Origin: an uncultured Clostridia bacterium
GTDB taxonomy: Bacteria; Bacillota; Clostridia; Oscillospirales; Ruminococcaceae
Direction: 5' to 3'
DNA length: 64,000 nt
Assembly (NCBI GenBank): GCA_947630825.1
Contig: CANRJA010000009.1
Span: forward strand, 686-64,685
Shown: positions 3,224 to 64,000 of the stretch, piece by piece
Layout: each line of letters opens with the position of its first letter
Numbering within the stretch: the first letter of the stretch is position 1
Notes under the pieces: generated by a model
What the model saw: the letters and a program-made list of their open reading frames with translations, nothing else
Database searches by the model: none
Told to the model about the DNA's origin: nothing
Position numbers and translations under genes: made by a program

Positions 3224-3258
3224 TAATTATCAATTATCCATTGTAAATTATCAATTAA
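3224..3258. repeat. Five tandem heptamers (TAATTAT CAATTAT CCATTGT AAATTAT CAATTAA), CCATTRT family
   Basis: Read directly. Starts 15 nt after the glmU stop. Same family as 25662-25724, 56444-56478, 57397-57431 and 58232-58273. Confidence 0.8.
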
Positions 3259-25661: not shown

Positions 25662-25724
25662 GCATTGTCCATTATCCATTGTCCATTGTCCACTATCCAT
25701 TATCAATTTCCCATTGTCCATTAC
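25662..25724. repeat. Nine tandem heptamers, consensus CCATTRT
   Basis: GCATTGT CCATTAT CCATTGT CCATTGT CCACTAT CCATTAT CAATTTC CCATTGT CCATTAC. The last unit contains the argG stop codon (25721-25723). Confidence 0.9.
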
Positions 25725-27292: not shown

Positions 27293-27445
27293 AAAATCGC
27301 TCCGTTCGTCTTGAAATAAATTTTAAATAATGGTTATTTTATCATAAATTTATCACTTTGTCCATATATAATAATTTTATCATTAGAGGTGTAAAAGTGA
27401 TATTTAATTCTTGAAAAACATATTCTAATGATATATAATGTTAAA

Positions 27446-27513
27446 GGTTAGAAATTAGAGGTTAGAAGTTAGATTAACGCAAAAAATTCTGGCTTCTTGC
27501 ATCTAGCATCTAG
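27446..27513 (+). promoter_or_regulatory. 5' UTR element: four UAG triplets at exact 7-nt spacing plus a complementary CUAG-containing arm abutting the RBS
   Basis: TAG at 27449, 27456, 27463 and 27470, then TAG at 27504, 27511 and 27514. 27462-27474 can pair with 27501-27513 (13 positions: 1 mismatch, 2 G-U). Upstream TTGAAA...TATATAAT promoter-like sequence around 27412-27438. RBS AGGGGG at 27515-27520. Confidence 0.55.
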
Positions 27514-38010: not shown

Positions 38011-38217
38011 TTATTCATTACCCTTTTCCTTATCTCTCTCCATAGTTTCACTAATTGCCCGATTAACAAATTTGTTTAATGAGCCGTCATACTTATTTGC
38101 GTGAACCGATATGTTATCTCGTTTCCCTTTAGGAACTCTTATATTAATATTATCATAATGATTTTTATTATATTTATTAATTGCTCTTTTTTGAGCTTTA
38201 CTAACTGGCATATTCAT
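38011..38217 (-). CDS. Small ribbon-helix-helix (Arc/CopG-like) DNA-binding protein, module A gene 2
   Basis: MNMPVSKAQKRAINKYNKNHYDNINIRVPKGKRDNISVHANKYDGSLNKFVNRAISETMERD. Predicted beta-strand (INIRVP) plus two helices. Paralogue of 38217-38411, 56468-56662 and 57421-57615. Start is ATG 38217 (overlapping the upstream stop as ATGA) or ATG 38211. Confidence 0.55.
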   Translation of the reverse strand: MNMPVSKAQKRAINKYNKNHYDNINIRVPKGKRDNISVHANKYDGSLNKFVNRAISETMERDKEKGNE

Positions 38218-38411
38218 CAGTCCTTTTCATTATCTCTCTCCATAGCTTCATTGATTGCTCTGTTAAGAAATTTGTTCAACGATCCATCATGTTTAATTGC
38301 ATGAGACTTAACTACTTCCTTTTCACCCTTAGGAAGCCTAAGATCAATCCTGTCATAATGATTTTTATTATACTTTGCATTCGCTCTAATTTTCGCTTTA
38401 CTTGCTGGCAT
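38217..38411 (-). CDS. Small ribbon-helix-helix-like DNA-binding protein, module A gene 1
   Basis: ORF 38217-38420 starts at a GTG inside the RBS GGGTGA. ATG 38411 gives MPASKAKIRANAKYNKNHYDRIDLRLPKGEKEVVKSHAIKHDGSLNKFLNRAINEAMERD. Confidence 0.55.
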   Translation of the reverse strand: MPASKAKIRANAKYNKNHYDRIDLRLPKGEKEVVKSHAIKHDGSLNKFLNRAINEAMERDNEKD

Positions 38412-38507
38412 TTTTTTCACCCTAAATCATTTATTAAAATATATTACTTTTGTAACTAATGATCAATATACACAAATATTATAAATAATATTTATATACT
38501 TTGTCTA

Positions 38508-38560
38508 TTGAAATTTACCATACTAGTATGGTATTATATGAACATAACAGTATGGTAATA
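38508..38560 (+). promoter_or_regulatory. Promoter of small ORF A with a 16-bp perfect palindrome in the spacer, plus a downstream half-site
   Basis: TTGAAA (38508-38513), 18 nt, TATTAT (38532-38537). ACCATACTAGTATGGT at 38517-38532. ACAGTATGGTAAT at 38548-38560. Confidence 0.55.
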
Positions 38561-38579
38561 TAAAAAGGATGTGACATCA

Positions 38580-38801
38580 ATGGAAAAAATAAATACAGAC
38601 GTAATAGTATCTGATATAGAAGAAATCAAGTGCAATTCTGATTTGCTGGCAGGACTATCATATGTCCTTACTGTATTTTTTGAGAACGCATATGGATCTG
38701 AAGATATAATAAGAGTTTTTTCATATTTAATGGAAGAAGCCTACAATCTTCAAGATAAATGCAATTCGCTGTATAAAAGCGTTATAGATGCAAGAGACTA
38801 G
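38580..38801 (+). CDS. 73-aa helical protein of unknown function (module A cargo), paralogue of 58006-58218
   Basis: ATG 38580 follows AAGGATGTGACATCA, the same leader as at 57301 and 57991. Alignable with the 58006 product (LLAGLSYVLTVFFEN vs MLSGLAHVCLLCFIN; C-terminal KCNSLYKSV vs HCYKLMQEA). Confidence 0.5.
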   Translation: MEKINTDVIVSDIEEIKCNSDLLAGLSYVLTVFFENAYGSEDIIRVFSYLMEEAYNLQDKCNSLYKSVIDARD

Positions 38802-38890
38802 AACTTACCTTTTTCACTTTGTATTAGCCCGCCGTTGTACAAACTATAACACTTATCAAACTACCCAAAGGCGGCAGAGCCCCTGCTGGT
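38779..38890. repeat. Mosaic repeat copy (TAGATGCAAGAGA heptad start, box A, box C-like GC segment)
   Basis: TAGATGCAAGAGACTAG matches the TAGATGCAAGAGATTTAG motif at 47285 and 47462. Box A at 38828-38878 (CCGCCGTTGTACAAAC...CCCAAAGGCGG). Followed by CAGAGCC. Confidence 0.75.
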
Positions 38891-39619
38891 TCAGCGGCGA
38901 CGGTCTTTTTCTGCTTTTGTTATCTGCAAATAGCTTGCGTTCAGTTTTGAAGCGTCATCAAAAAGGCTTTCGTCATTAAGCGCTATCATACACAAAGAAT
39001 TTGCATTCTGAAGTCTTTTGCCGATAGGAGCTAATACGACGCTTTCATCGTCTTTAAACAAGCCGTCTTTGATTTCTTTCGCATTATCGCCGACAAGGAT
39101 TATACTCTCAAAAGCATTATCCTGCCTGTATTTCAGTATTTCATCGTTACCGCAAACAGTATCATCGCATATACTTTCAATCTTTTCACCGTAAATTTTG
39201 TACGCTCCGAAATAAGACACATTCGGTCTTGCCCTCATAACTGAAAAAACAATTTTCCCGTCACGCTCTCCGCTGCATAAATTCATAGCAAGCGATTTCA
39301 AGGTCGAGATACCTGCGCACTTTTTGTTATCCTTAAAGCATAACCCCTTTACCGCCGAAATACCTATTCTAAGACCCGTATAGCTTCCCGGCCCGTTTGC
39401 AACAGCAACAGCGTCAATGTCTGCGAGAGTTAAATTGGCGTCAATTAATAGCCTTCTCAAAATCGGGAGCAAAACCTGCGAGTGGGTAAGCTCGGTCATA
39501 ACGGTGGTGTTTGCTAAAATCCTGTCCTTGTCCGCAACGGCTAAAGACGCTGTTTTTCCCGAAGTGTCAACGCCAAGAACTATTTTTGATTTTTCATCTT
39601 TTTTATTCAAAGCGTTCAT
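38891..39619 (-). CDS. tsaB: tRNA t6A37 biosynthesis protein TsaB (YeaZ)
   Basis: ORF 38891-39727. Start moved to ATG 39619 (MNALNKK...ILGVDTSGKTASLAV...GPGSYTGLRIG). Overlaps the tsaE 3' end by 17 nt. Confidence 0.85.
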   Translation of the reverse strand: MNALNKKDEKSKIVLGVDTSGKTASLAVADKDRILANTTVMTELTHSQVLLPILRRLLIDANLTLADIDAVAVANGPGSYTGLRIGISAVKGLCFKDNKKCAGISTLKSLAMNLCSGERDGKIVFSVMRARPNVSYFGAYKIYGEKIESICDDTVCGNDEILKYRQDNAFESIILVGDNAKEIKDGLFKDDESVVLAPIGKRLQNANSLCMIALNDESLFDDASKLNASYLQITKAEKDRRR

Positions 39620-47192: not shown

Positions 47193-47640
47193 CATAATGT
47201 ATTTTGTTTGCATAACGGCGGTTAGTATTTTGTGTAAAAGGTAGGTGGCAACAGTGACCGCCGAGCTGGCGGTGGCTCTGCCGCTAGATGCAAGAGATTT
47301 AGAAGCAAGAAGCAAGAAATAAAGTTTAATGCTTTGTTCAAAAGATAATTTCTTGCATCTTGTCTCTAATCTCTAGCTTCTAATCGGTGACGTTGCATCT
47401 AATCCGCCTTTGGAAAGTTAGCATAATGTATTTTCTTTGCATAACGGCGGTGGCTCTGCTGCTAGATGCAAGAGATTTAGAAGCAAGAAGCAAGAAATAA
47501 AGTTTATTGCTTTGTTCAAAAGATAATTTCTTGCATCTTGTCTCTAATCTCTAGCTTCTAATCGGTGACGTTGCATCCAATCTGCCTTTAGATAGTATGT
47601 AAAATGTTATAGCTTGTACAACGGCAGGCTAATACTCTGC
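47157..47640. repeat. Mosaic repeat array: partial unit plus two exact-length 178-nt tandem units (47273-47450, 47451-47628)
   Basis: Each unit is TGGCTCTGC, then a 38-nt AAG/TAG heptad arm, a ~30-nt loop, the complementary arm, GGTGACGTTGCATC and box A. GGTGACGTTGCATC starts at 47157, 47386 and 47564. GC hairpin CCGCCGAGCTGGCGG at 47258-47272. Confidence 0.92.
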
Positions 47641-50049: not shown

Positions 50050-50554
50050 CCGCCAGCGAGCCGCTGGTTGCACTGCCGCCTTTGAAAAGATTGTAAGATG
50101 TTTCGATTTGTACAACGGCGGAATTTACTTTGTTTAGAAGACTGGCAAGCAACGGTGACTGGCGAGACGCTATCAGAGACAAGAAACTAGAAGCAAGAAG
50201 CAAGACGTTACTATTAGAACTTTGTGAAAAAGATAATTTCTTGCCTCTGACTTCTGGTCTCTTGCCTCTAACACTTTTGCCTCTAGGTACTAGCCTGCCG
50301 TTGTACAAAATAAACACTTTACACAAATTCTCCAAAGGCAGAGAGCCTGCGGCGGTTCGCCGCTGGCAGAGACAAGAAGCAAGAAGCAAGACGTTATTAT
50401 TAGAACTTTGTTAAAAAGATATTTTCTTGCCTCTGGCTTCTGGTCTCTTGCCTCTAGGTACTAGCCTGCCGTTGCACAGAATAAACACTTTATACAAATT
50501 CTCCAAAGGCAGAGAGCCTGCGGCGGTTCGCCGCTGGCTTCTTGTCTCTTGCTT
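50050..50554. repeat. Mosaic repeat array: GC hairpin, box A, then two tandem units (50174-50366, 193 nt; 50367-50537, 171 nt)
   Basis: Each unit is a CAG/AAG/TAG heptad arm, a loop (CGTTAYTATTAGAACTTTGT.AAAAAGATA), a CTTGCCTCT arm, inverted box A, and the GC hairpin GCGGCGGTTCGCCGC. The copies differ by a 7-nt and a 15-nt indel. Confidence 0.92.
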
Positions 50555-55734: not shown

Positions 55735-56160
55735 TTATAGCTCGTAAGCTTCCGGCCTCTGTGCAGCGTGATTGTGTGTGTCGCCTTTGTATACCCTTAA
55801 ACGTGTTGCTGCTGTTCTGCCAAGTGTGTTGTTAGGAAGCATTCCGTTTACTGCTAGTGTCATTGCTTTGTCTGACCTTTCAGCCATCATCTTGTCATAC
55901 TTGATCTCTTTAAGTCCGCCTATCCAGCCTGTGTGCCATCTGTGGAATTTCTGGTCTAGCTTTTTGCCAGTCAATACAGCCTTGTCAGTGTTTATGATGA
56001 TTACAAAATCACCACAGTCTGCGTGAGGTGCATATGTCGGCTTGTGCTTTCCGCGAAGAATGTGTGCAGCCTTTGCGGCAGTTCTTCCAAGAGATTCGCC
56101 TGCTGCATCAATAACATACCATTTGCGCTCAATGTCGCTTGCCTTTGGCATATAAGTCAT
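55735..56160 (-). CDS. rplM: 50S ribosomal protein L13
   Basis: 141 aa; KWYVIDAAG...LGRTAA motif. Confidence 0.97.
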   Translation of the reverse strand: MTYMPKASDIERKWYVIDAAGESLGRTAAKAAHILRGKHKPTYAPHADCGDFVIIINTDKAVLTGKKLDQKFHRWHTGWIGGLKEIKYDKMMAERSDKAMTLAVNGMLPNNTLGRTAATRLRVYKGDTHNHAAQRPEAYEL

Positions 56161-56269
56161 AGTTGTTTTCCTCCAATTAAGTTTTTTCTTTCCTGCTTTA
56201 TTGGTTCAGCATACCCATTAAAGCCGAAGCAACATTTAACATTATAATGTTTAGCAAATTGGTTGTCAA
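56161..56269 (-). promoter_or_regulatory. Consensus sigma-A promoter and ~75-nt leader of rplM-rpsI (possible L13 leader)
   Basis: Minus strand TTGACA (56264-56269), 17 nt, TATAAT (56241-56246). No structure was verified in the leader. Confidence 0.6.
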
Positions 56270-56392
56270 GAGGTAAATTGCTAAAATTTTAAAATATATC
56301 CTCTATTCTCTTGAAATCTCTCTGTTTTTCTTTAATTCTCTATGTTTCTTTAGTTTCATTTCATTGTTTACAATTTGTTCATAAAGCAAACA

Positions 56393-56430
56393 AACATTGT
56401 AATAATCTTATGCAAGAGGCGGAAGAATGA
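56393..56430 (+). pseudogene. 3'-terminal remnant of another copy of the ~70-aa small ORF
   Basis: AACATTGTAATAATCTTATGCAAGAGGCGGAAGAATGA matches the last 38 nt of 58006-58218 apart from 3 substitutions (two interrupt the frame as TAA TAA). There is no upstream coding part. It is followed by the same TTTATTATAACATTAATTATCCATT junction. Confidence 0.7.
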
Positions 56431-56443
56431 TTTATTATAACAT

Positions 56444-56478
56444 TAATTATCCATTTTCCATTGTCAATTATCCATTAT
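56444..56478. repeat. Five CCATTRT-family heptamers spanning the stop codon of the RHH gene
   Basis: TAATTAT CCATTTT CCATTGT CAATTAT CCATTAT. Confidence 0.85.
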
Positions 56479-56662
56479 TTTTATCTCTCTCCATAGCTTC
56501 ATCAACCGCCCGATTAAGAAACTTGTTTAAAGATACATCATACTCATTTGCATGAGCTACTATCTTTTCCTTTTTACCTTTTGGAACTCTTATAAGCATA
56601 CTATCATAGTGCTTTTTATTATATTTTGCATTCGCTCTTTTTTGGGCTTTACTAACCGGCAT
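56468..56662 (-). CDS. Small ribbon-helix-helix-like DNA-binding protein, module B
   Basis: ORF 56468-56674 starts at a TTG upstream of the GGTGA RBS; ATG 56662 gives MPVSKAQKRANAKYNKKHYDSMLIRVPKGKKEKIVAHANEYDVSLNKFLNRAVDEAMERDKNNG. Nearly identical in nucleotide sequence to 57421-57615. Confidence 0.55.
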   Translation of the reverse strand: MPVSKAQKRANAKYNKKHYDSMLIRVPKGKKEKIVAHANEYDVSLNKFLNRAVDEAMERDKNNG

Positions 56663-56685
56663 ATTTTTCACCAACTTATATCAAT

Positions 56686-56892
56686 TTAATCTTCCCTATA
56701 CTCTAAAATATCACCTATATCACATTCAAGCAAACTGCAAAGCTTTGATAGGACAGCATAAGATACACTTTTGTTGTGCCTTAATCGTTGCAATGTAGCT
56801 TCTCCTAATATTTTTTCTTTTCTTAAACGTGATGTATTATAGCCTTTTGCTTTTAATTCTGCTAAAACATTAATTTTATATCTTATAGGCAT
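56686..56892 (-). CDS. XRE/Cro-C1-type HTH protein (68 aa, YozG-like), module B
   Basis: MPIRYKINVLAELKAKGYNTSRLRKEKILGEATLQRLRHNKSVSYAVLSKLCSLLECDIGDILEY. The C-terminal C(D/Q)xGDI(L/M)EY is typical of short HTH_26-type regulators. Confidence 0.72.
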   Translation of the reverse strand: MPIRYKINVLAELKAKGYNTSRLRKEKILGEATLQRLRHNKSVSYAVLSKLCSLLECDIGDILEYRED

Positions 56893-56952
56893 TATGTAAA
56901 CTTTCCTTTCACAAATATCTAAAATTGTTCTTAAGACCTAGCACATTAATAA

Positions 56953-57171
56953 TTAAATGTTAGTATCATCTTCATCTACATATTCCATAATATCTCCGGG
57001 TTGGCAATTTAAAATTTTACAAAGTTTATTTATTGTATCAGTAGTTACACTTTTATTATTTTTTAAGGATGTTAATGTACCTTGAGGTATAATATTTTCC
57101 TGTCTTATCCTGTATGTACTTAATTCTCTTTTTTTCATTAAACTAAATAGCTTATCGAATTTTATAGCCAT
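56953..57171 (-). CDS. Second XRE/Cro-C1-type HTH protein, module B only
   Basis: ORF 56953-57192 (TTG); ATG 57171 gives MAIKFDKLFSLMKKRELSTYRIRQENIIPQGTLTSLKNNKSVTTDTINKLCKILNCQPGDIMEY. Confidence 0.7.
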   Translation of the reverse strand: MAIKFDKLFSLMKKRELSTYRIRQENIIPQGTLTSLKNNKSVTTDTINKLCKILNCQPGDIMEYVDEDDTNI

Positions 57172-57253
57172 ATATACAATACTACCTTTCAAATTTTATA
57201 ATATGCACTTAATAGACATAATAATTTATAAAAAATTTGTGCAATATTACATA

Positions 57254-57282
57254 TTGAATGTGCACAGATTTTTGTGTATAAT
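57254..57282 (+). promoter_or_regulatory. Consensus promoter with imperfect palindrome in the spacer (module B)
   Basis: TTGAAT, 17 nt (GTGCACAGATTTTTGTG), TATAAT. Confidence 0.6.
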
Positions 57283-57314
57283 ATAATTATACCAATTAAT
57301 AAGGAGTGACATCA

Positions 57315-57383
57315 ATGAAAAAAAAGTTTAGAGCTATTCATTTAGTGGATTTTGAAGAAGTAATGAAAGAGGCTGAAGAATGA
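57315..57383 (+). pseudogene. Internally deleted copy of the small ORF (22 codons), marking the duplication junction
   Basis: MKKKFRAIHLVDFEEVMKEAEE*. The first 20 codons match 58006-58065. It then joins to the last codons through GAGGCTGAA / GAGGCGGAA microhomology. Confidence 0.75.
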
Positions 57384-57396
57384 TTTATTATAACAT

Positions 57397-57431
57397 TAAT
57401 TATCCATTATCCATTGTCAATTATTCATTAT
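57397..57431. repeat. Five CCATTRT-family heptamers spanning the stop codon of the RHH gene
   Basis: TAATTAT CCATTAT CCATTGT CAATTAT TCATTAT. Confidence 0.85.
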
Positions 57432-57615
57432 TTTTATCTCTCTCCATAGCTTCATCAACCGCCCGATTAAGAAACTTGTTTAAAGATACATCATACTCAT
57501 TTGCATGAGCTACTATCTTTTCCTTTTTACCTTTTGGAACTCTTATAAGCATACTATCATAGTGTTTTTTATTATATTTTGCATTCGCTCTTTTTTGGGC
57601 TTTACTAACCGGCAT
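57421..57615 (-). CDS. Small ribbon-helix-helix-like DNA-binding protein, module C
   Basis: Same protein as 56468-56662 except the last residue (NNE vs NNG). ATG 57615 follows GGTGA. Confidence 0.55.
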   Translation of the reverse strand: MPVSKAQKRANAKYNKKHYDSMLIRVPKGKKEKIVAHANEYDVSLNKFLNRAVDEAMERDKNNE

Positions 57616-57638
57616 ATTTTTCACCACCTTATATCCGT

Positions 57639-57845
57639 TTAATCTTCCCTATACTCTAAAATATCACCTATATCACATTCAAGTAATTTACAGAGTCTTG
57701 AAATATTCTTGTAAGACACAATTTGGTTATGTCTCAATAGATGTATTGTTGCTTCTGCCAATAATTTTTCTTTTCTTAAACGTGATGTATTATAGCCTTT
57801 TGCTTTTAATTCTGCTAAAACATTAATCTTATACTGAATAGACAT
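57639..57845 (-). CDS. XRE/Cro-C1-type HTH protein (68 aa), module C
   Basis: MSIQYKINVLAELKAKGYNTSRLRKEKLLAEATIHLLRHNQIVSYKNISRLCKLLECDIGDILEY. It differs from the module B copy mainly in the central HTH segment. Confidence 0.72.
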   Translation of the reverse strand: MSIQYKINVLAELKAKGYNTSRLRKEKLLAEATIHLLRHNQIVSYKNISRLCKLLECDIGDILEYRED

Positions 57846-57944
57846 ACTGACTGATACCCCTTTTTATTTCTTGCATATATTGCACAGAATTACTGTGTAC
57901 AATATAAACAATAATAGACTTATAATTTTGTATAATATTACATA

Positions 57945-57973
57945 TTGATTTACACAGAAATTACGTGTATAAT
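57945..57973 (+). promoter_or_regulatory. Consensus promoter with imperfect palindrome in the spacer (module C)
   Basis: TTGATT, 17 nt (TACACAGAAATTACGTG), TATAAT. A related palindrome CACAGAATTACTGTG lies at 57889-57903, in the oppositely oriented promoter region. Confidence 0.6.
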
Positions 57974-58005
57974 ATAGATAATTTAAATTAAAGGAAGTGA
58001 CATCA

Positions 58006-58218
58006 ATGAAAAAAAAGTTTAGAGCTATTCATTTAGTGGATTTTGAAGAAGTAATGAAAGAGGCTGAAATGTTATCAGGACTTGCTCATGTATGCTTATT
58101 ATGCTTTATCAATTCCTTTGAAAGCGACATTTTCACAGGAGCATTTGAATGTTTAGCCAACGAAGCCTCAAAATTGAGTGAACATTGTTATAAACTTATG
58201 CAAGAGGCGGAAGAATGA
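58006..58218 (+). CDS. 70-aa helical protein of unknown function (module C cargo)
   Basis: ATG 58006 follows AAGGAAGTGACATCA. MKKKFRAIHLVDFEEVMKEAEMLSGLAHVCLLCFINSFESDIFTGAFECLANEASKLSEHCYKLMQEAEE. Paralogue of 38580-38801. Confidence 0.5.
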   Translation: MKKKFRAIHLVDFEEVMKEAEMLSGLAHVCLLCFINSFESDIFTGAFECLANEASKLSEHCYKLMQEAEE

Positions 58219-58231
58219 TTTATTATAGCAT

Positions 58232-58273
58232 TAATTATCCATTATCCATTGTCAATTATCAATTATCAATTAC
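58232..58273. repeat. Six CCATTRT-family heptamers spanning the stop codon of the DtxR-like gene
   Basis: TAATTAT CCATTAT CCATTGT CAATTAT CAATTAT CAATTAC. Confidence 0.85.
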
Positions 58274-58634
58274 AGTTTTCCTTTATCCTCGCAAAAGTCT
58301 CCTCCGAGATTATATGCTCTATCTTGCAGGCGTCAAGCTCGGCATTTTCCCTTGATACGCCTAAACCCTCCAGAAAATCGGTTATTACTAAATGCCTGTG
58401 ATATACCGACTCCGCTTTCTTTCTGCCCTCGTCTGTAAGAACTATCTGCCCCGACGGCTCGACGGATATATATCCGTTTGCTTTCAGAATACCCATAGCA
58501 CGGCTCACGCTCGGCTTTGAATACCCCAACTCTGTCGCAATATCAATAGAGCGCACATATCCTGTTTTATTGTGAAGTATTAAAATGGTTTCTAAATAAT
58601 CCTCTCCCGATTCGTGAAGACAGCATTGTTTCAT
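58266..58634 (-). CDS. DtxR/MntR-family metal-dependent transcriptional regulator (short form)
   Basis: ORF 58266-58658. Start moved to ATG 58634 after GGAGGA. ESGEDYLETILIL...VRSIDIATELGYSKPSVSRA wHTH and an HRHL...FL dimerisation helix. Confidence 0.8.
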   Translation of the reverse strand: MKQCCLHESGEDYLETILILHNKTGYVRSIDIATELGYSKPSVSRAMGILKANGYISVEPSGQIVLTDEGRKKAESVYHRHLVITDFLEGLGVSRENAELDACKIEHIISEETFARIKENCN

Positions 58635-58688
58635 TTTAAATCCTCCATTCTTACGCAAATTTTTTCATACCCTGATTTATTAAAACAT

Positions 58689-59414
58689 CTACAAAATTTT
58701 TGGATTCTTTAACGCCTCAATAACGGCTTCTGCTGAATTTTCCTCAGCGTGCAGGAAATTAACAGGCTCGTTTATATCCCGAAGATAGTGTGCGTCAGAG
58801 CTTGTTATCACCTTACAGCTGTTTAAGTAATCGTGCTGAGCTTTAAGCTCGGGCAGATTATTGAGGTTTTTAAGCTCTACAGTTTTAAATGTAGAATCCG
58901 GCGAAATAAATCCTAAGTTTGCCAAAAGCGAGTTAGCCTGCTTGTCTATATGAGCAGGTATAGCAACTCCGCCCATACTTTCAACCAACGGAAACACCTT
59001 TGAAAATGAAATAGTCGTCGCATTGATAAGCAGCTTGTTCTCGTGTCCGATTATCTCGTCATCGCTGTTCATTATTAGTTGTTCGCCGAATATATCGGGA
59101 TTATTCTCTACAGGCATTATTCTCTGATTTACATACTCGTCGAGCTCAAGCGCTCTCTCCAAACTTGGCATAAGGCATACAACGTGAACCTCCTCCTCAG
59201 TGGTAAGCTCCATACCGCAAATTAAGGTCTTGCCATAAGCCTTTGCGACTTCACTTGCGGCAACGCAGTTTTTCGAGGCGTTGTGGTCGCACAGAGCGAT
59301 AATATCAAGCTCTTTAACATAAGCCATTCCGACGATGTTCGCAGGGGTAGACTCATTATCACCGCAAGGCGAAAGACAGGAATGTATATGTAAATCGTAA
59401 GACAGGCTAAGCAT
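58689..59414 (-). CDS. PHP-domain phosphoesterase
   Basis: 241 aa. N-terminal DLHIHSCLSPCGD, with later HN and H..D motifs of the PHP family. Confidence 0.75.
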   Translation of the reverse strand: MLSLSYDLHIHSCLSPCGDNESTPANIVGMAYVKELDIIALCDHNASKNCVAASEVAKAYGKTLICGMELTTEEEVHVVCLMPSLERALELDEYVNQRIMPVENNPDIFGEQLIMNSDDEIIGHENKLLINATTISFSKVFPLVESMGGVAIPAHIDKQANSLLANLGFISPDSTFKTVELKNLNNLPELKAQHDYLNSCKVITSSDAHYLRDINEPVNFLHAEENSAEAVIEALKNPKIL

Positions 59415-61890: not shown

Positions 61891-61954
61891 AATGATCCTC
61901 CTATAATAATTTCAAATGATACAAATAGCTATTAAAAAACCTAATATTATTTTA

Positions 61955-63034
61955 CTATATGGTACCATTAATATTCTTTCGTATATCCGGTATTAGTTGT
62001 GATAAAGGACGCACATAATCCTTCATACCAGTATGCATATTGCATCTTTTATATGTATCACTCGTATCCATTAAATAAAATATTTGACCTTGCTCACCTA
62101 AACGAACAATTTTATCATCTGTTAAATCCTTATCATAAGTAATAAGATGCCATAATTCTTTAACTTTAAAATGTGATAATGTTCCTCTATCTGCTTGACT
62201 AAGCTGTTTCCAGCGTTCCCTTAAAGTACGTTTGCAACTTATACCAATTATCCAACCATCTTTACATTTAAACCATTTATCCACTTCAAGATCTTGATCA
62301 AAGTGACTAGGTGCACTCGTAGAATTAAATTTATAATAATCAAATAAAAATGAAGTCACTGATTCAAGAGAGTTGCCACCTCGAGCCTTTCTTTTTTGAC
62401 CTAATCGCCTTTCAAATTCTTGTACAAATGCAGTTAGTAATAAATTATCGTCAATCGAATCGTGTTGTATGTTTAAAGATGTTAAATTATCAATAAGTTT
62501 TGTAAATTCTTCAACTACTATTGTTCTCTCAACATCAAGGCAACCTTTCACACCTAATGTATCCCACGTAGAAATAACAAGACCTGCCTTTTCCTCTCCA
62601 AGTGTATCTAGAATACTTGTTGCAGATTTATAACAAAATTCAATATCATCCGATGGTATTCCAGATAAAGCATGATTAATTGGAGCCACTACATATTTCA
62701 TAGTAATACAAAAAACAACAATATCATCTATAGAATTGATATCTTGATTTAATGTTGTAACAAGATTTTTTGTCAATTGACACATTTTAGAACCTGTTTT
62801 TACCATTTTAATCAATTCATTTGATAAAGCATTTTTCAAAACTTTTAATTTTTCATCATTATCCATTACGTCTTGAACCAGTAAGTTTTCTAATAAAGAA
62901 ACCGTATTTAACAACTGAGTTTCTTTGCATTTTCCCAATGCACCATATTGATCAGTATTCATTAAATGTCTTGCAAACCAATATATATTTTTAAACGGAG
63001 ATTTTTGTATCTTCTGATGTAAGTTTTCTTGCAT
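61955..63034 (-). CDS. Putative type II restriction endonuclease
   Basis: ORF 61955-63100. Start moved to ATG 63034, 9 nt after AAGGAGG. Lies immediately downstream of the methyltransferase and overlaps it by 44 nt. AT-rich. The acidic/Lys cluster FDQDLEVDKWFKCK...GISCKRTLRERW is compatible with a PD-(D/E)XK site but was not verified. Confidence 0.5.
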   Translation of the reverse strand: MQENLHQKIQKSPFKNIYWFARHLMNTDQYGALGKCKETQLLNTVSLLENLLVQDVMDNDEKLKVLKNALSNELIKMVKTGSKMCQLTKNLVTTLNQDINSIDDIVVFCITMKYVVAPINHALSGIPSDDIEFCYKSATSILDTLGEEKAGLVISTWDTLGVKGCLDVERTIVVEEFTKLIDNLTSLNIQHDSIDDNLLLTAFVQEFERRLGQKRKARGGNSLESVTSFLFDYYKFNSTSAPSHFDQDLEVDKWFKCKDGWIIGISCKRTLRERWKQLSQADRGTLSHFKVKELWHLITYDKDLTDDKIVRLGEQGQIFYLMDTSDTYKRCNMHTGMKDYVRPLSQLIPDIRKNINGTI

Positions 63035-63815
63035 TTCTCCAATCCTCCTTTCCTTCAATACGATTTTTAGCCATTTTACAATACATACTGGATTTTTCAA
63101 TCAAAATATAATTTCTATTATATTTTTGACTTGAAACCGCAGTTGTACCAGAACCACCAAAGGGATCTAAAATTATTTGTCCATTTGTACTTGATACTAT
63201 TCTATCTATTAATTCTTCAGGAAAAGGGGCTGGATGTGGATTATTCATTTCCTGTTTAATTTCCCATACATCAGTCCATTTATTTGCCCCCTTTGTTAGT
63301 TTAAATGATTTATTACAAACTAAATATATTTGTTCTGTTGTAGGTAAAAAGTAACCAGCATTAAAATTAATAGCTCCACTCCTTTTCCACGTTATAATCT
63401 GCCTTACTGGAAAATCTTTTAGTATTTCACGTCTGTCTTGTAGCAAGCCGCCTTGCACCCTATTTTTGTTATTATAAAAAATAGCTCCATCTTCTTTTAT
63501 AAGGCGATACATTTCAGCAACGCACTTTCGTTGCCATTCTAAATACTCAGGATAAGGTAGATTATCATCATAATCTTTATAGCCATTTTTAATTGCAGCA
63601 TTTTTCCATTTTCCGCAATGTGTGTTTTTCTTTAATCCATTACCAGTAGAATTGAGTAAATTATATGGAGGCGAAGTGATAATAATATCAATGCTTTTAT
63701 CCGGCATTTTACGCATTACTTCTAAACAATCACCATGAATAATACTATTTAAATTATTATCAATTTCTATGTTCTCAGCTTCAAGTGCATTAAACTCAAT
63801 AATTTTAACAGACAT
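62991..63815 (-). CDS. DNA methyltransferase, beta-class (N4-cytosine or N6-adenine)
   Basis: 274 aa. Catalytic motif IV IITSPPYN is near the N-terminus and SAM motif I LDPFGGSGTT near the C-terminus (beta permutation). SPPY favours N4-cytosine specificity but does not prove it. Confidence 0.85.
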   Translation of the reverse strand: MSVKIIEFNALEAENIEIDNNLNSIIHGDCLEVMRKMPDKSIDIIITSPPYNLLNSTGNGLKKNTHCGKWKNAAIKNGYKDYDDNLPYPEYLEWQRKCVAEMYRLIKEDGAIFYNNKNRVQGGLLQDRREILKDFPVRQIITWKRSGAINFNAGYFLPTTEQIYLVCNKSFKLTKGANKWTDVWEIKQEMNNPHPAPFPEELIDRIVSSTNGQIILDPFGGSGTTAVSSQKYNRNYILIEKSSMYCKMAKNRIEGKEDWRNARKLTSEDTKISV

Positions 63816-64000
63816 TTAGAACTCCCTTTTTATCATAACTTATAAATCATAATATCAAATAATATTTCTTAAATCGAATTATTTAACATATATATTTATA
63901 TACCTTTTTATAATAACATTTTTTCAATTTGTTTTCAAGACCATTTTGCTTTAAAAAATTGCCAACCGATATAAATTTATTTATTACTGAACAAATTGTA

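Follow-up and report, generated by a model that had tools for sequence, protein, structure and literature searches.

What is the role of a 70-residue protein that is encoded opposite a stack of small DNA-binding proteins, in two unequal tandem copies, between a ribosomal protein gene and a hydrogenase-sensor operon? The question is raised by positions 56393–58272 of a 64,000-nucleotide stretch of contig CANRJA010000009.1 (positions 686 to 64,685, assembly GCA_947630825.1) from an uncultured Clostridia bacterium; this whole stretch is called the window below. The region holds two tandem units with one full gene for the 70-residue protein (S70), one stub and one remnant of that gene, two genes for ribbon-helix-helix (RHH) proteins and three for helix-turn-helix (HTH) proteins of the HTH_26 type. 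An earlier description made from the DNA letters (the sequence-only reading) had reported the tandem units, the intact second unit, the stub, the 38-nt remnant and the extra HTH gene, and all of them are present where it had placed them, as judged from the sequence, the open reading frames (ORFs) and the repeats. We regard the region as a polymorphic locus that belongs to a lineage-specific family of repressor-gated cassettes present in multiple copies, in which S70 would be an effector under a lock acting at the level of transcription only; the probability of this reading is put at about 0.5.

The evidence that carries this reading lies upstream of S70. In an alignment of the upstream regions of all distinct modules, a near-consensus promoter (TTGAnn-17/18-TATAAT) precedes every S70 gene, with conserved -35 and -10 hexamers (1.35 and 1.54 bits) and a hypervariable, palindromic spacer (0.41 bits). 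The spacer co-varies with the repressor gene located closest to the promoter: where two modules share a proximal repressor type, their spacers have a median identity of 0.94, against 0.35 where the types differ (95th percentile 0.59 for differing types). Only the promoter-proximal repressor type corresponds to the operator in the S70 promoter, and the pairing of repressor and spacer recurs across chromosomal sites, species and S70 paralogues. The pairs are given here with the loci in which they occur (L-numbers are the labels of the compared loci or contigs).

RHH with the strand GIHMRV: spacer palindrome ACAAYGGTACCRTTGT, in L023, L026 and L045.
RHH with the strand ERVVLTV: spacer palindrome ATACTGTGCACAGTAT, in five loci.
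RHH with the strand SMLIRV: spacer palindrome ACCATG-N4-CATGGT, in L031, L003 and L011.
HTH68: spacer palindrome ACACAGAAATTNNGTG, in six loci (the window, L032, L027, L009, L010 and L012).
HTH72-like (~50% identity): spacer palindrome ATCAC-N8-GTGAT, in L004 and L012.

The HTH68 pairing is found at two chromosomal sites, the one between rplM and the DtxR-type gene and the one labeled MSEDEL/MNIDEK. We infer from the co-variation that the S70 promoter is shut by the proximal repressor, through its binding to the palindrome in the spacer. The earlier picture of a small ORF under tight control by small DNA-binding proteins is supported. S70 would be driven by a near-consensus sigma-A promoter, the 17–18 nt spacer of which is filled by a palindromic operator, and the divergent operon of one to five minimal repressors would keep S70 off through its promoter-proximal, cognate member occupying that spacer. 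The proximal repressor probably regulates its own operon as well, through a second palindrome. In most modules, whatever the repressor type, the motif ATTTGTnnAnTnTTnCnnA is conserved directly 5' of the -35 hexamer of S70 (at 57923–57944 in the window, for example), and may be an UP-like element, a part of the divergent repressor promoter, or the site of a common factor.

The same arrangement was found far beyond the window locus. In a tblastn survey, S70 is encoded on one strand and faces a divergent stack of one to five HTH_26 or RHH genes, in any number and order. Across about 50 modules the stacks range from one RHH or one HTH, through two RHH or three HTH with one RHH, up to five RHH, and the pair of HTH and RHH genes, taken as the basic unit by the sequence-only reading, is not an obligate one. 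At least one HTH_26 or RHH gene is divergent from S70 in every locus with a complete upstream region. The scan of one genome per species returned 27 loci, all of them in metagenome-assembled genomes (MAGs) of "uncultured Clostridia bacterium" from the rabbit gut, with 3–7 copies per MAG; more distant members with an unchanged layout were added by further look-ups. As the modules are multi-copy and variable, they do not behave as a strictly conserved single-copy gene set. They are located at about 12 syntenic sites between core genes, each site being occupied in several species with differing stacks. Among these sites are those between the POR operon and a CbiA-like gene, an AI-2E transporter gene and nadB, rplI and gdpP, rplM and the DtxR-like gene, rpiB and tsaB, CorC and aldolase genes, glgA and a gene for a 350-residue protein, and trpF and trpB (inside the trp operon).

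The modules follow one orientation rule. The gene 3' of S70 is convergent with it in all 35 cases, spread over about 12 distinct sites; both flanking host genes are on the repressor strand at every locus, with S70 alone on the opposite one, and the repressor stack is co-directional with the host gene downstream of it, including in the trp-operon module. Since both host neighbors are opposite to S70, no sense read-through enters S70. Read-through from the upstream gene, as judged from the layout, would cross S70 in the antisense direction and would then transcribe the repressor stack. In the trp-operon module (L045, 2762–3345) a GIHMRV-type RHH gene and an S70 paralogue are located between trpF and trpB, the repressor gene being co-directional with the trp operon and S70 antisense to it. 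In L021 (4756–5213) and L023 (4684–5213), two S70 paralogues (~40% and ~70% identity to the window protein) are placed in tandem behind one operator-bearing promoter, and in L021 five RHH genes are found upstream of the tandem paralogues.

The features of the window locus, from rplM to the DtxR-type gene, are as follows.

55735–56160, minus strand: rplM, the left flank of the array.
56269–56241, minus strand: rplM promoter, perfect TTGACA-17-TATAAT, from the promoter scan.
56393–56430, plus strand: 38-nt 3' remnant of the S70 gene (…CTTATGCAAGAGGCGGAAGAATGA), from the repeat comparison; the one-repressor allele of L031 has the same remnant.
56446–56473: period-7 array (ATTATCC/ATTGTCA), after the stop codon of the S70 remnant and overlapping the 3' end of the RHH gene.
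56468–56662, minus strand: RHH repressor of unit 1, 64 residues from ATG, Arc/AmrZ type, β-strand DSMLIRV, distal in the stack.
56686–56892, minus strand: HTH_26 repressor of unit 1, 68 residues, with a recognition region of the L017/L025 type and 79% identity to the unit 2 copy.
56953–57171, minus strand: extra HTH_26 repressor, 72 residues, HTH72 type, promoter-proximal to the stub.
57254–57282, plus strand: S70-type promoter of the stub, TTGAAT-17-TATAAT, with the spacer GTGCACAGATTTTTGTG, a putative HTH72-type operator in common with L016.
57315–57383, plus strand: S70 stub of 22 codons, translated as MKKKFRAIHLVDFEEVMKEAEE and stop.
57399–57431: period-7 array after the stub.
57421–57615, minus strand: RHH repressor of unit 2, 64 residues, distal.
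57639–57845, minus strand: HTH_26 repressor of unit 2, 68 residues, HTH68 type, promoter-proximal to the intact S70.
57883–57897: perfect palindrome CACAGAATTACTGTG adjoining the start of the repressor operon, a candidate autoregulatory operator.
57945–57973, plus strand: promoter of the intact S70, TTGATT-17-TATAAT, with the spacer TACACAGAAATTACGTG, a putative HTH68-type operator.
58006–58218, plus strand: intact S70 gene, 70 residues, a predicted acidic α-hairpin of an orphan family.
58233–58272: period-7 array after the S70 stop codon, abutting the convergent DtxR-like gene.
58266–58634, minus strand: DtxR-type repressor gene, convergent with S70, the right flank.

The RHH proteins of units 1 and 2 are near-identical, with the last residue (G and E, respectively) as the sole difference. 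In the stub, S70 codons 1–21 run directly into the final codon and stop of the gene, with the join at GAGGCTGAA/GAGGCGGAA. Two repeats were returned by the repeat finder: one of 300 nt and 97% identity (56410–56709 and 57363–57662), its copies spaced by 953 nt, and a junction element of 86 nt that occurs three times, from 56393, 57346 and 58181 onward. The GC content is 0.23–0.33 within the array and ~0.36–0.50 in the flanks, in agreement with the earlier description of an AT-rich array between the rplM promoter and the hydrogenase-sensor operon. The palindrome CACAGAATTACTGTG has its sole perfect copy within the 64 kb at 57883–57897, and the HTH68 and RHH palindromes are essentially restricted to the modules over the same length, the other match having one mismatch and being consistent with chance. 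No terminator-like sites were found in 56100–58700, and the Rfam search of the region gave no match.

Beyond the DtxR-type gene, the right flank comprises PHP, DRTGG and [FeFe]-hydrogenase-like sensor genes. A 20-nt unit, TCTTGAAATCTCTATGTTTT, is present twice at 56309–56347, between the rplM promoter and the S70 remnant, and also in L031. An insertion of ~1.95 kb at 61904–63856, adjoining the hydrogenase-sensor operon, sets the window, and with it the identical L032, apart from strain L031. It encodes an N6_N4 DNA methyltransferase and an ORF of 359–381 residues, and is probably a restriction-modification insertion polymorphism.

The window contains a second module, located between rpiB and tsaB (38011–38801), with the following features.

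38011–38217 and 38217–38411, minus strand: two tandem RHH genes.
38517–38532: promoter palindrome, putative operator ACCATACTAGTATGGT.
38580–38801, plus strand: S70 paralogue, 73 residues, 27% identity to S70.

Is the two-unit structure real, and how could it have arisen? Contigs that encode exactly the same DtxR-like protein were compared as independent assemblies of the site. The two-unit structure was also assembled in two samples, L032 and L033 (the window and L032 are 100% identical across 5.4 kb), and thus the arrangement is not an assembly artefact. L035 has a single-unit allele (remnant-RHH-HTH68-promoter-S70) and L031 an RHH-only allele (remnant-RHH-promoter-S70) with a different operator in the promoter. 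From these alleles, copy number and content vary within one species, and the copy-number variation that the sequence-only reading proposed to measure is seen as one-repressor, single-unit and two-unit alleles among the assemblies. L031, with its one repressor, already has the 38-nt remnant, which is therefore older than the duplication. In L032 both HTH68 copies are 94–97% identical to the HTH68 of window unit 2, whereas the unit 1 copy of the window differs (79% identity) and has the recognition region of another allele, of the L017/L025 type; gene conversion therefore followed the duplication. By their sequences, units 1 and 2 of the window are not simple copies of each other.

The stub had been explained as the scar of an unequal crossing-over. 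Its sequence fits such an event, between the microhomology in the S70 5' part and the remnant, and fits equally well a microhomology deletion in a once-complete copy. With p marking the promoter-proximal repressor, the allele series at this site reads RHH(p); RHH-HTH68(p); RHH-HTH68-HTH72(p)-stub-RHH-HTH68(p). At the MLEILQ/MEKIRIQ site the repressor order t4<t5<t7<t3<t11<S70 (type labels from the clustering of repressors) is kept across differing subsets. The series and the kept order fit a model in which a new cassette of repressor and operator is inserted beside S70 and the older repressors are pushed outward, with deletions in addition. Decayed S70 copies are found within stacks of intact repressors, namely the window stub and remnant, L004 (9563–9627) and L025 (4545–4667). 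Short-read contigs often end in or beside modules (L034, L036–L039, L047 and L048), and two start 190 nt upstream of rplM. The look-up of an empty site via rplM returned only the same allele and short contigs breaking at the module. As assemblers break on the multi-copy module sequences, the copy number per MAG is probably under-counted.

The arrays would evolve by recombination between dispersed copies, for which homology would be offered by both conserved ends of S70 (the 5' one together with its ribosome-binding site, RBS), by the likewise conserved 3' portions of the repressor genes and by the period-7 arrays. Cassettes would become stacked beside S70 or duplicated in tandem, genes would be converted, and surplus copies of S70 would decay; the stub and the remnant would be scars of this kind. 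The period-7 arrays (ATTATCC/ATTGTCA) follow the S70 stop codon and the last repressor gene, and bracket the modules as direct copies in the window, L002 and L026 and as inverted copies in L016, L044 and L045. Protein-binding heptads, recombination pads and boundary elements are possible roles. Period-7 arrays are also seen in module-free intergenic regions (window 3226–3253 and 25664–25723; L003 9037; L011 7587–8010; L045 4897), the gap between argG and argH being one example. A separate, GC-rich intergenic repeat (…GGCGGTGGCTCTGCC… / …AGAGCCACCGGCGG…), flanked by GCAAGAA/AGAAGCA heptamers, is dispersed over the window at 47268–47596 (178 nt in 1.8 copies), 27441–27513, 50180–50455 and 38830–38900, as well as in L001 (6300–6420) and L045 (3390–3460). 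It is sometimes placed just 3' of S70 and has no Rfam match.

What kind of protein is S70? It is rare, with 15 close clusters among 5.8 billion proteins (33 with the family profile), and phmmer against 1.84 billion cluster representatives gave six matches, one of them spurious (P0019, a eukaryote-like repeat protein of 1513 residues). S70 had no match in Pfam, NCBIfam, PHROG or PADLOC; the family profile gave nothing below E 0.7 against the PDB, and Foldseek of the S70 model against the PDB and BFVD returned generic hairpins only, all with E of ~0.4 or higher. The homology and structure searches proposed with the earlier description thus point to no known family, housekeeping or other. Its remark on the lack of an integrase, of phage genes and of a known toxin fold is likewise borne out, by the flanks and by the S70 searches. 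The dN/dS of S70 is 0.18 over 275 gene pairs, and the values for RHH (0.17) and HTH68 (0.14) place all three kinds of genes under purifying selection. The RBS of S70 is conserved across the modules. The AlphaFold2 model shows an antiparallel two-helix hairpin (residues 10–37 and 41–69) with a pLDDT of 83.7. Judged from dN/dS, the RBS and the modeled hairpin, S70 is a real protein, and the model suggests that it probably dimerizes into a four-helix bundle.

The isoelectric point is 4.2–5.2 in seven of nine S70 paralogues (7.72 and 5.73 in the other two). The maximum 19-residue Kyte-Doolittle mean is 0.84–1.46 in eight of the nine, and it is below the transmembrane threshold in all but one distant paralogue. 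Being acidic and with a peak hydropathy below this threshold, S70 is taken as a soluble protein and not a membrane peptide; of the earlier wording, a small and partly hydrophobic helical protein, the helical part agrees with the model, while the hydrophobic part has to be replaced by acidic and soluble. Three other identities were considered and rejected. A membrane-active, type I-like small toxin is at odds with the lack of a helix of transmembrane-length hydrophobicity and with the mostly acidic instead of basic character. A metal or Fe-S site is not supported, as only C61 is invariant across the paralogues, while C30 and C49 are not kept by all of them. A double-glycine bacteriocin leader could be suspected from the invariant G25-L26, but what would be the mature peptide is acidic, the neighborhood encodes neither a transporter nor a peptidase, and the model helix is continuous across G25-L26.

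The repressors, 64–72 residues long, consist of the DNA-binding domain only. The three HTH genes of the window match Pfam HTH_26 (PF13443) with 44.3, 50.5 and 60.9 bits (cut-off 22; E from 2e-11 to 1e-16). The RHH profile, built from 12 members, matches AmrZ (3qoq, E 7.6e-5) and Arc (1b28, E 0.017) in the PDB, with an alignment spanning the strand and the helices, and RHH also matches PHROG families of Arc-like repressors at 2e-5 to 4e-4. By these profile matches the RHH genes are assigned to the Arc/MetJ ribbon-helix-helix superfamily and the HTH genes to Cro/C1-type HTH_26. In the RHH alignment the variability is located in the N-arm and the DNA-reading β-strand, and helix B is nearly invariant.

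What would such a lock be for? Since S70 is conserved while its partner changes between two unrelated folds, the conserved contact would be with a target and not with the repressor, and S70 would act on a conserved cellular target rather than on its own repressor. Untimely expression of S70 seems costly, because its consensus promoter is plugged by an operator, a repressor gene is placed beside every S70, decayed S70 copies lie among intact repressors, and the specificities diversify fast; this pattern suggests an effector that is harmful if made at the wrong time, probably by inhibiting growth. The lock, similar in logic to toxin and immunity pairs, would open when the supply of repressor fails, as in transcription shut-off, stress or infection. 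A more far-reaching version is tentative and, in our view, doubtful: the modules would be an undescribed class of chromosomal, transcription-locked effectors, the S70 of which would act either on the cell, by arresting or killing it, or on an invader, by blocking it. The repressor-operator specificity would be the sole restraint, diversifying like an immunity repertoire by cassette stacking, and a collapse of the repressor supply from the surrounding housekeeping operons would fire the system, which would thereby sense the shut-off of transcription in the host.

Several points weigh against the lock and its effector. A toxic or defensive role of S70 is something that we infer, no toxin fold or motif was found in it and PADLOC gave no match, and post-segregational killing does not follow from a repressor-only lock alone. 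The mechanism of insertion, or a need to drive the downstream genes, could equally be the origin of the orientation rule. The modules occupy syntenic core-genome sites across species, unlike typical mobile toxin-antitoxin (TA) or defense genes. The distal repressors are intact and yet have no evident operator nearby. Finally, only 5 of 31 distal repressors have a proximal copy of the same type elsewhere in the sampled part of the MAG; with this count, and with sampling incomplete, the idea of a network in which the distal repressors back up other modules of the genome finds no support.

Of the other explanations, a benign regulatory role of S70 survives best, although we consider it unlikely. 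S70 would be a modulator in the style of Sda, SinI or Spo0E, an anti-factor or a DNA mimic, and its many copies would be many independently switchable inputs. The predicted helical hairpin, the acidic character and the Firmicute host are in line with this, as are the purifying selection and the long retention of syntenic sites across species, and the generic hairpins at the top of the Foldseek list include the DHp domain of histidine kinases and Rop (variant 1f4m). In common with Sda, SinI, Spo0E and Rop (46–85 residues), the S70 model has an antiparallel two-helix fold and would likely form a dimeric four-helix bundle. On the other hand, there is no sequence or profile match to these proteins: 18 S70 members searched against Pfam at E≤10 gave no family assignment and none matches the Spo0E, SinI or Sda families, and the SQELD motif of Spo0E is absent from the S70 alignment. 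Multiple copies, each with hypervariable repressors of its own, are not known for any of those proteins, and sensor domains are lacking in the repressors of the modules. A costly expression of S70 would account more easily for the hypervariable pairs of repressor and operator, for the strict shielding against read-through and for the often decayed S70 copies.

RHH and XRE folds are the commonest DNA-binding domains of antitoxins, and one could think of a classical type II TA system, possibly with three components, in which S70 is a toxin neutralized by direct binding of the HTH or RHH antitoxin. The small size of the proteins, the orphan repressors beside decayed S70 copies and a weak match of RHH to HicB in Pfam (E 0.0013, 19 bits, below the cut-off of 21) would agree with it. 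The system is nevertheless improbable, because the genes are divergent, S70 being opposite in strand to every repressor gene at all loci with no co-transcription, and because a conserved S70 (61–100% identity) pairs with two unrelated repressor folds of more than 15 specificities. In addition, the repressors have nothing beyond the DNA-binding domain and S70 matches no toxin family or fold. The resemblance to TA, abortive-infection or phage-immunity switches noted by the sequence-only reading is kept for the lock-like logic, is unlikely to extend to type II TA, and is given up for an accessory or defense-island setting, the sites being core and syntenic.

The brackets of period-7 arrays, seen also at module-free intergenic sites, the multi-copy character and the short-read assemblies breaking at the loci could suggest non-autonomous mobile cassettes, similar to miniature inverted-repeat transposable elements or integrons, which would insert into these arrays or recombine by way of them, and whose proteins would serve the upkeep of the element only. 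We hold this to be a poor candidate: the flanks examined contain neither a transposase nor an integrase, no consistent target duplication is seen, the sites are mostly common to species and not scattered, and the left S70-derived direct repeat is present only at the window site between rplM and the DtxR-like gene and at the second array of L004. The least probable alternative is that the modules are fixed, now functionless relics of immunity regions of prophages or mobile elements (a CI/Cro or Mnt/Arc switch with a moron), since the matches of RHH to phrog_13890 (2e-15) and to "Arc-like repressor" genes near the ends of two Flavonifractor phages (47–50% identity), the low GC and the divergent promoter with operators are set against the absence of S70 from 50,697 phage records and 72,556 plasmids (tblastn) and from IMG/VR, the lack of integrase or structural genes nearby, the purifying selection on three gene types and the ~12 conserved core sites.

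Does the module belong to any described system? No specific equivalent was found in the literature. In the immI region of phage P22 (mnt and arc-ant), small RHH repressors act at divergent promoters with overlapping operators and a downstream payload is silenced. The modules are similar in having Arc/AmrZ-like RHH proteins and small repressors at divergent promoters over a payload that would be silent; they differ in being chromosomal and not part of a prophage, in an orphan payload, a 70-residue hairpin of no known antirepressor type, and in having HTH or RHH repressors in variable stacked arrays, with about 12 copies per genome. Control at the level of transcription only is known for omega of omega-epsilon-zeta and for CreTA; omega is an RHH protein that acts on DNA alone and reads heptad repeats, and immunity-type genes (orphan antitoxins) are retained after decay of the toxin. 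In the modules an effector gene would likewise be kept off by a repressor alone, and repressors are kept beside decayed S70, but neither a neutralizing antitoxin nor any known toxin, be it zeta, CreT or another, is present.

The controller (C) proteins of restriction-modification systems are XRE-type HTH proteins of 70–80 residues with palindromic promoter boxes, and their specificity groups govern establishment and incompatibility. Small XRE-type HTH proteins, promoter palindromes and diversified specificities are shared with the modules, which have no restriction or modification genes and in which the regulators are apparent repressors of a divergent gene, not activators or repressors of their own operon. 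According to PMC9410906, PMC6765145 and PMC13551039, acr-aca operons combine a strong promoter, a small and often acidic payload and a minimal HTH regulator acting on inverted repeats of the promoter, and Aca proteins form many families with distinct operators. The modules share the small acidic payload, the strong promoter with an operator and a minimal, apparent repressor; unlike acr and aca, which form one operon on mobile elements, S70 is divergent from its repressors, is located at core sites and is absent from the phage, plasmid and viral collections.

Two further candidates were rejected on the surroundings of the modules. A prophage immunity region does not fit the flanks, which are rplM, rpsI, lepA, the DtxR-like gene and the hydrogenase-sensor genes here and rpiB, tsaB, rplI, gdpP, POR and trp genes elsewhere. 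An integron cassette array does not fit either, as no integrase is found in any flank and the spacers are short and have no attC-like inverted repeats. The module belongs to none of the P22-type switches, the acr-aca operons, the restriction-modification systems with C proteins or the TA systems with a DNA-only regulator. By analogy, its design resembles known switches, and it may be described as a repressor-gated small effector with an orphan payload family.

In general, the family is confined to an uncultured clade of rabbit-gut Clostridia. If the repressor-gated reading is true, an orphan effector family would be added, in which the orientation shields a single conserved payload from read-through, and the minimal repressors paired with it, of two folds, can replace one another. 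At least 15 natural, compact repressor/operator pairs (64–72 residues, with 14–20 bp sites in a consensus promoter) would become available, and they could be used as candidate orthogonal parts in Gram-positive synthetic biology. For the biology of the clade itself, the loci offer a strain-resolved view of remodeling by duplication, stacking of cassettes, swaps of specificity by gene conversion, and decay of the payload.

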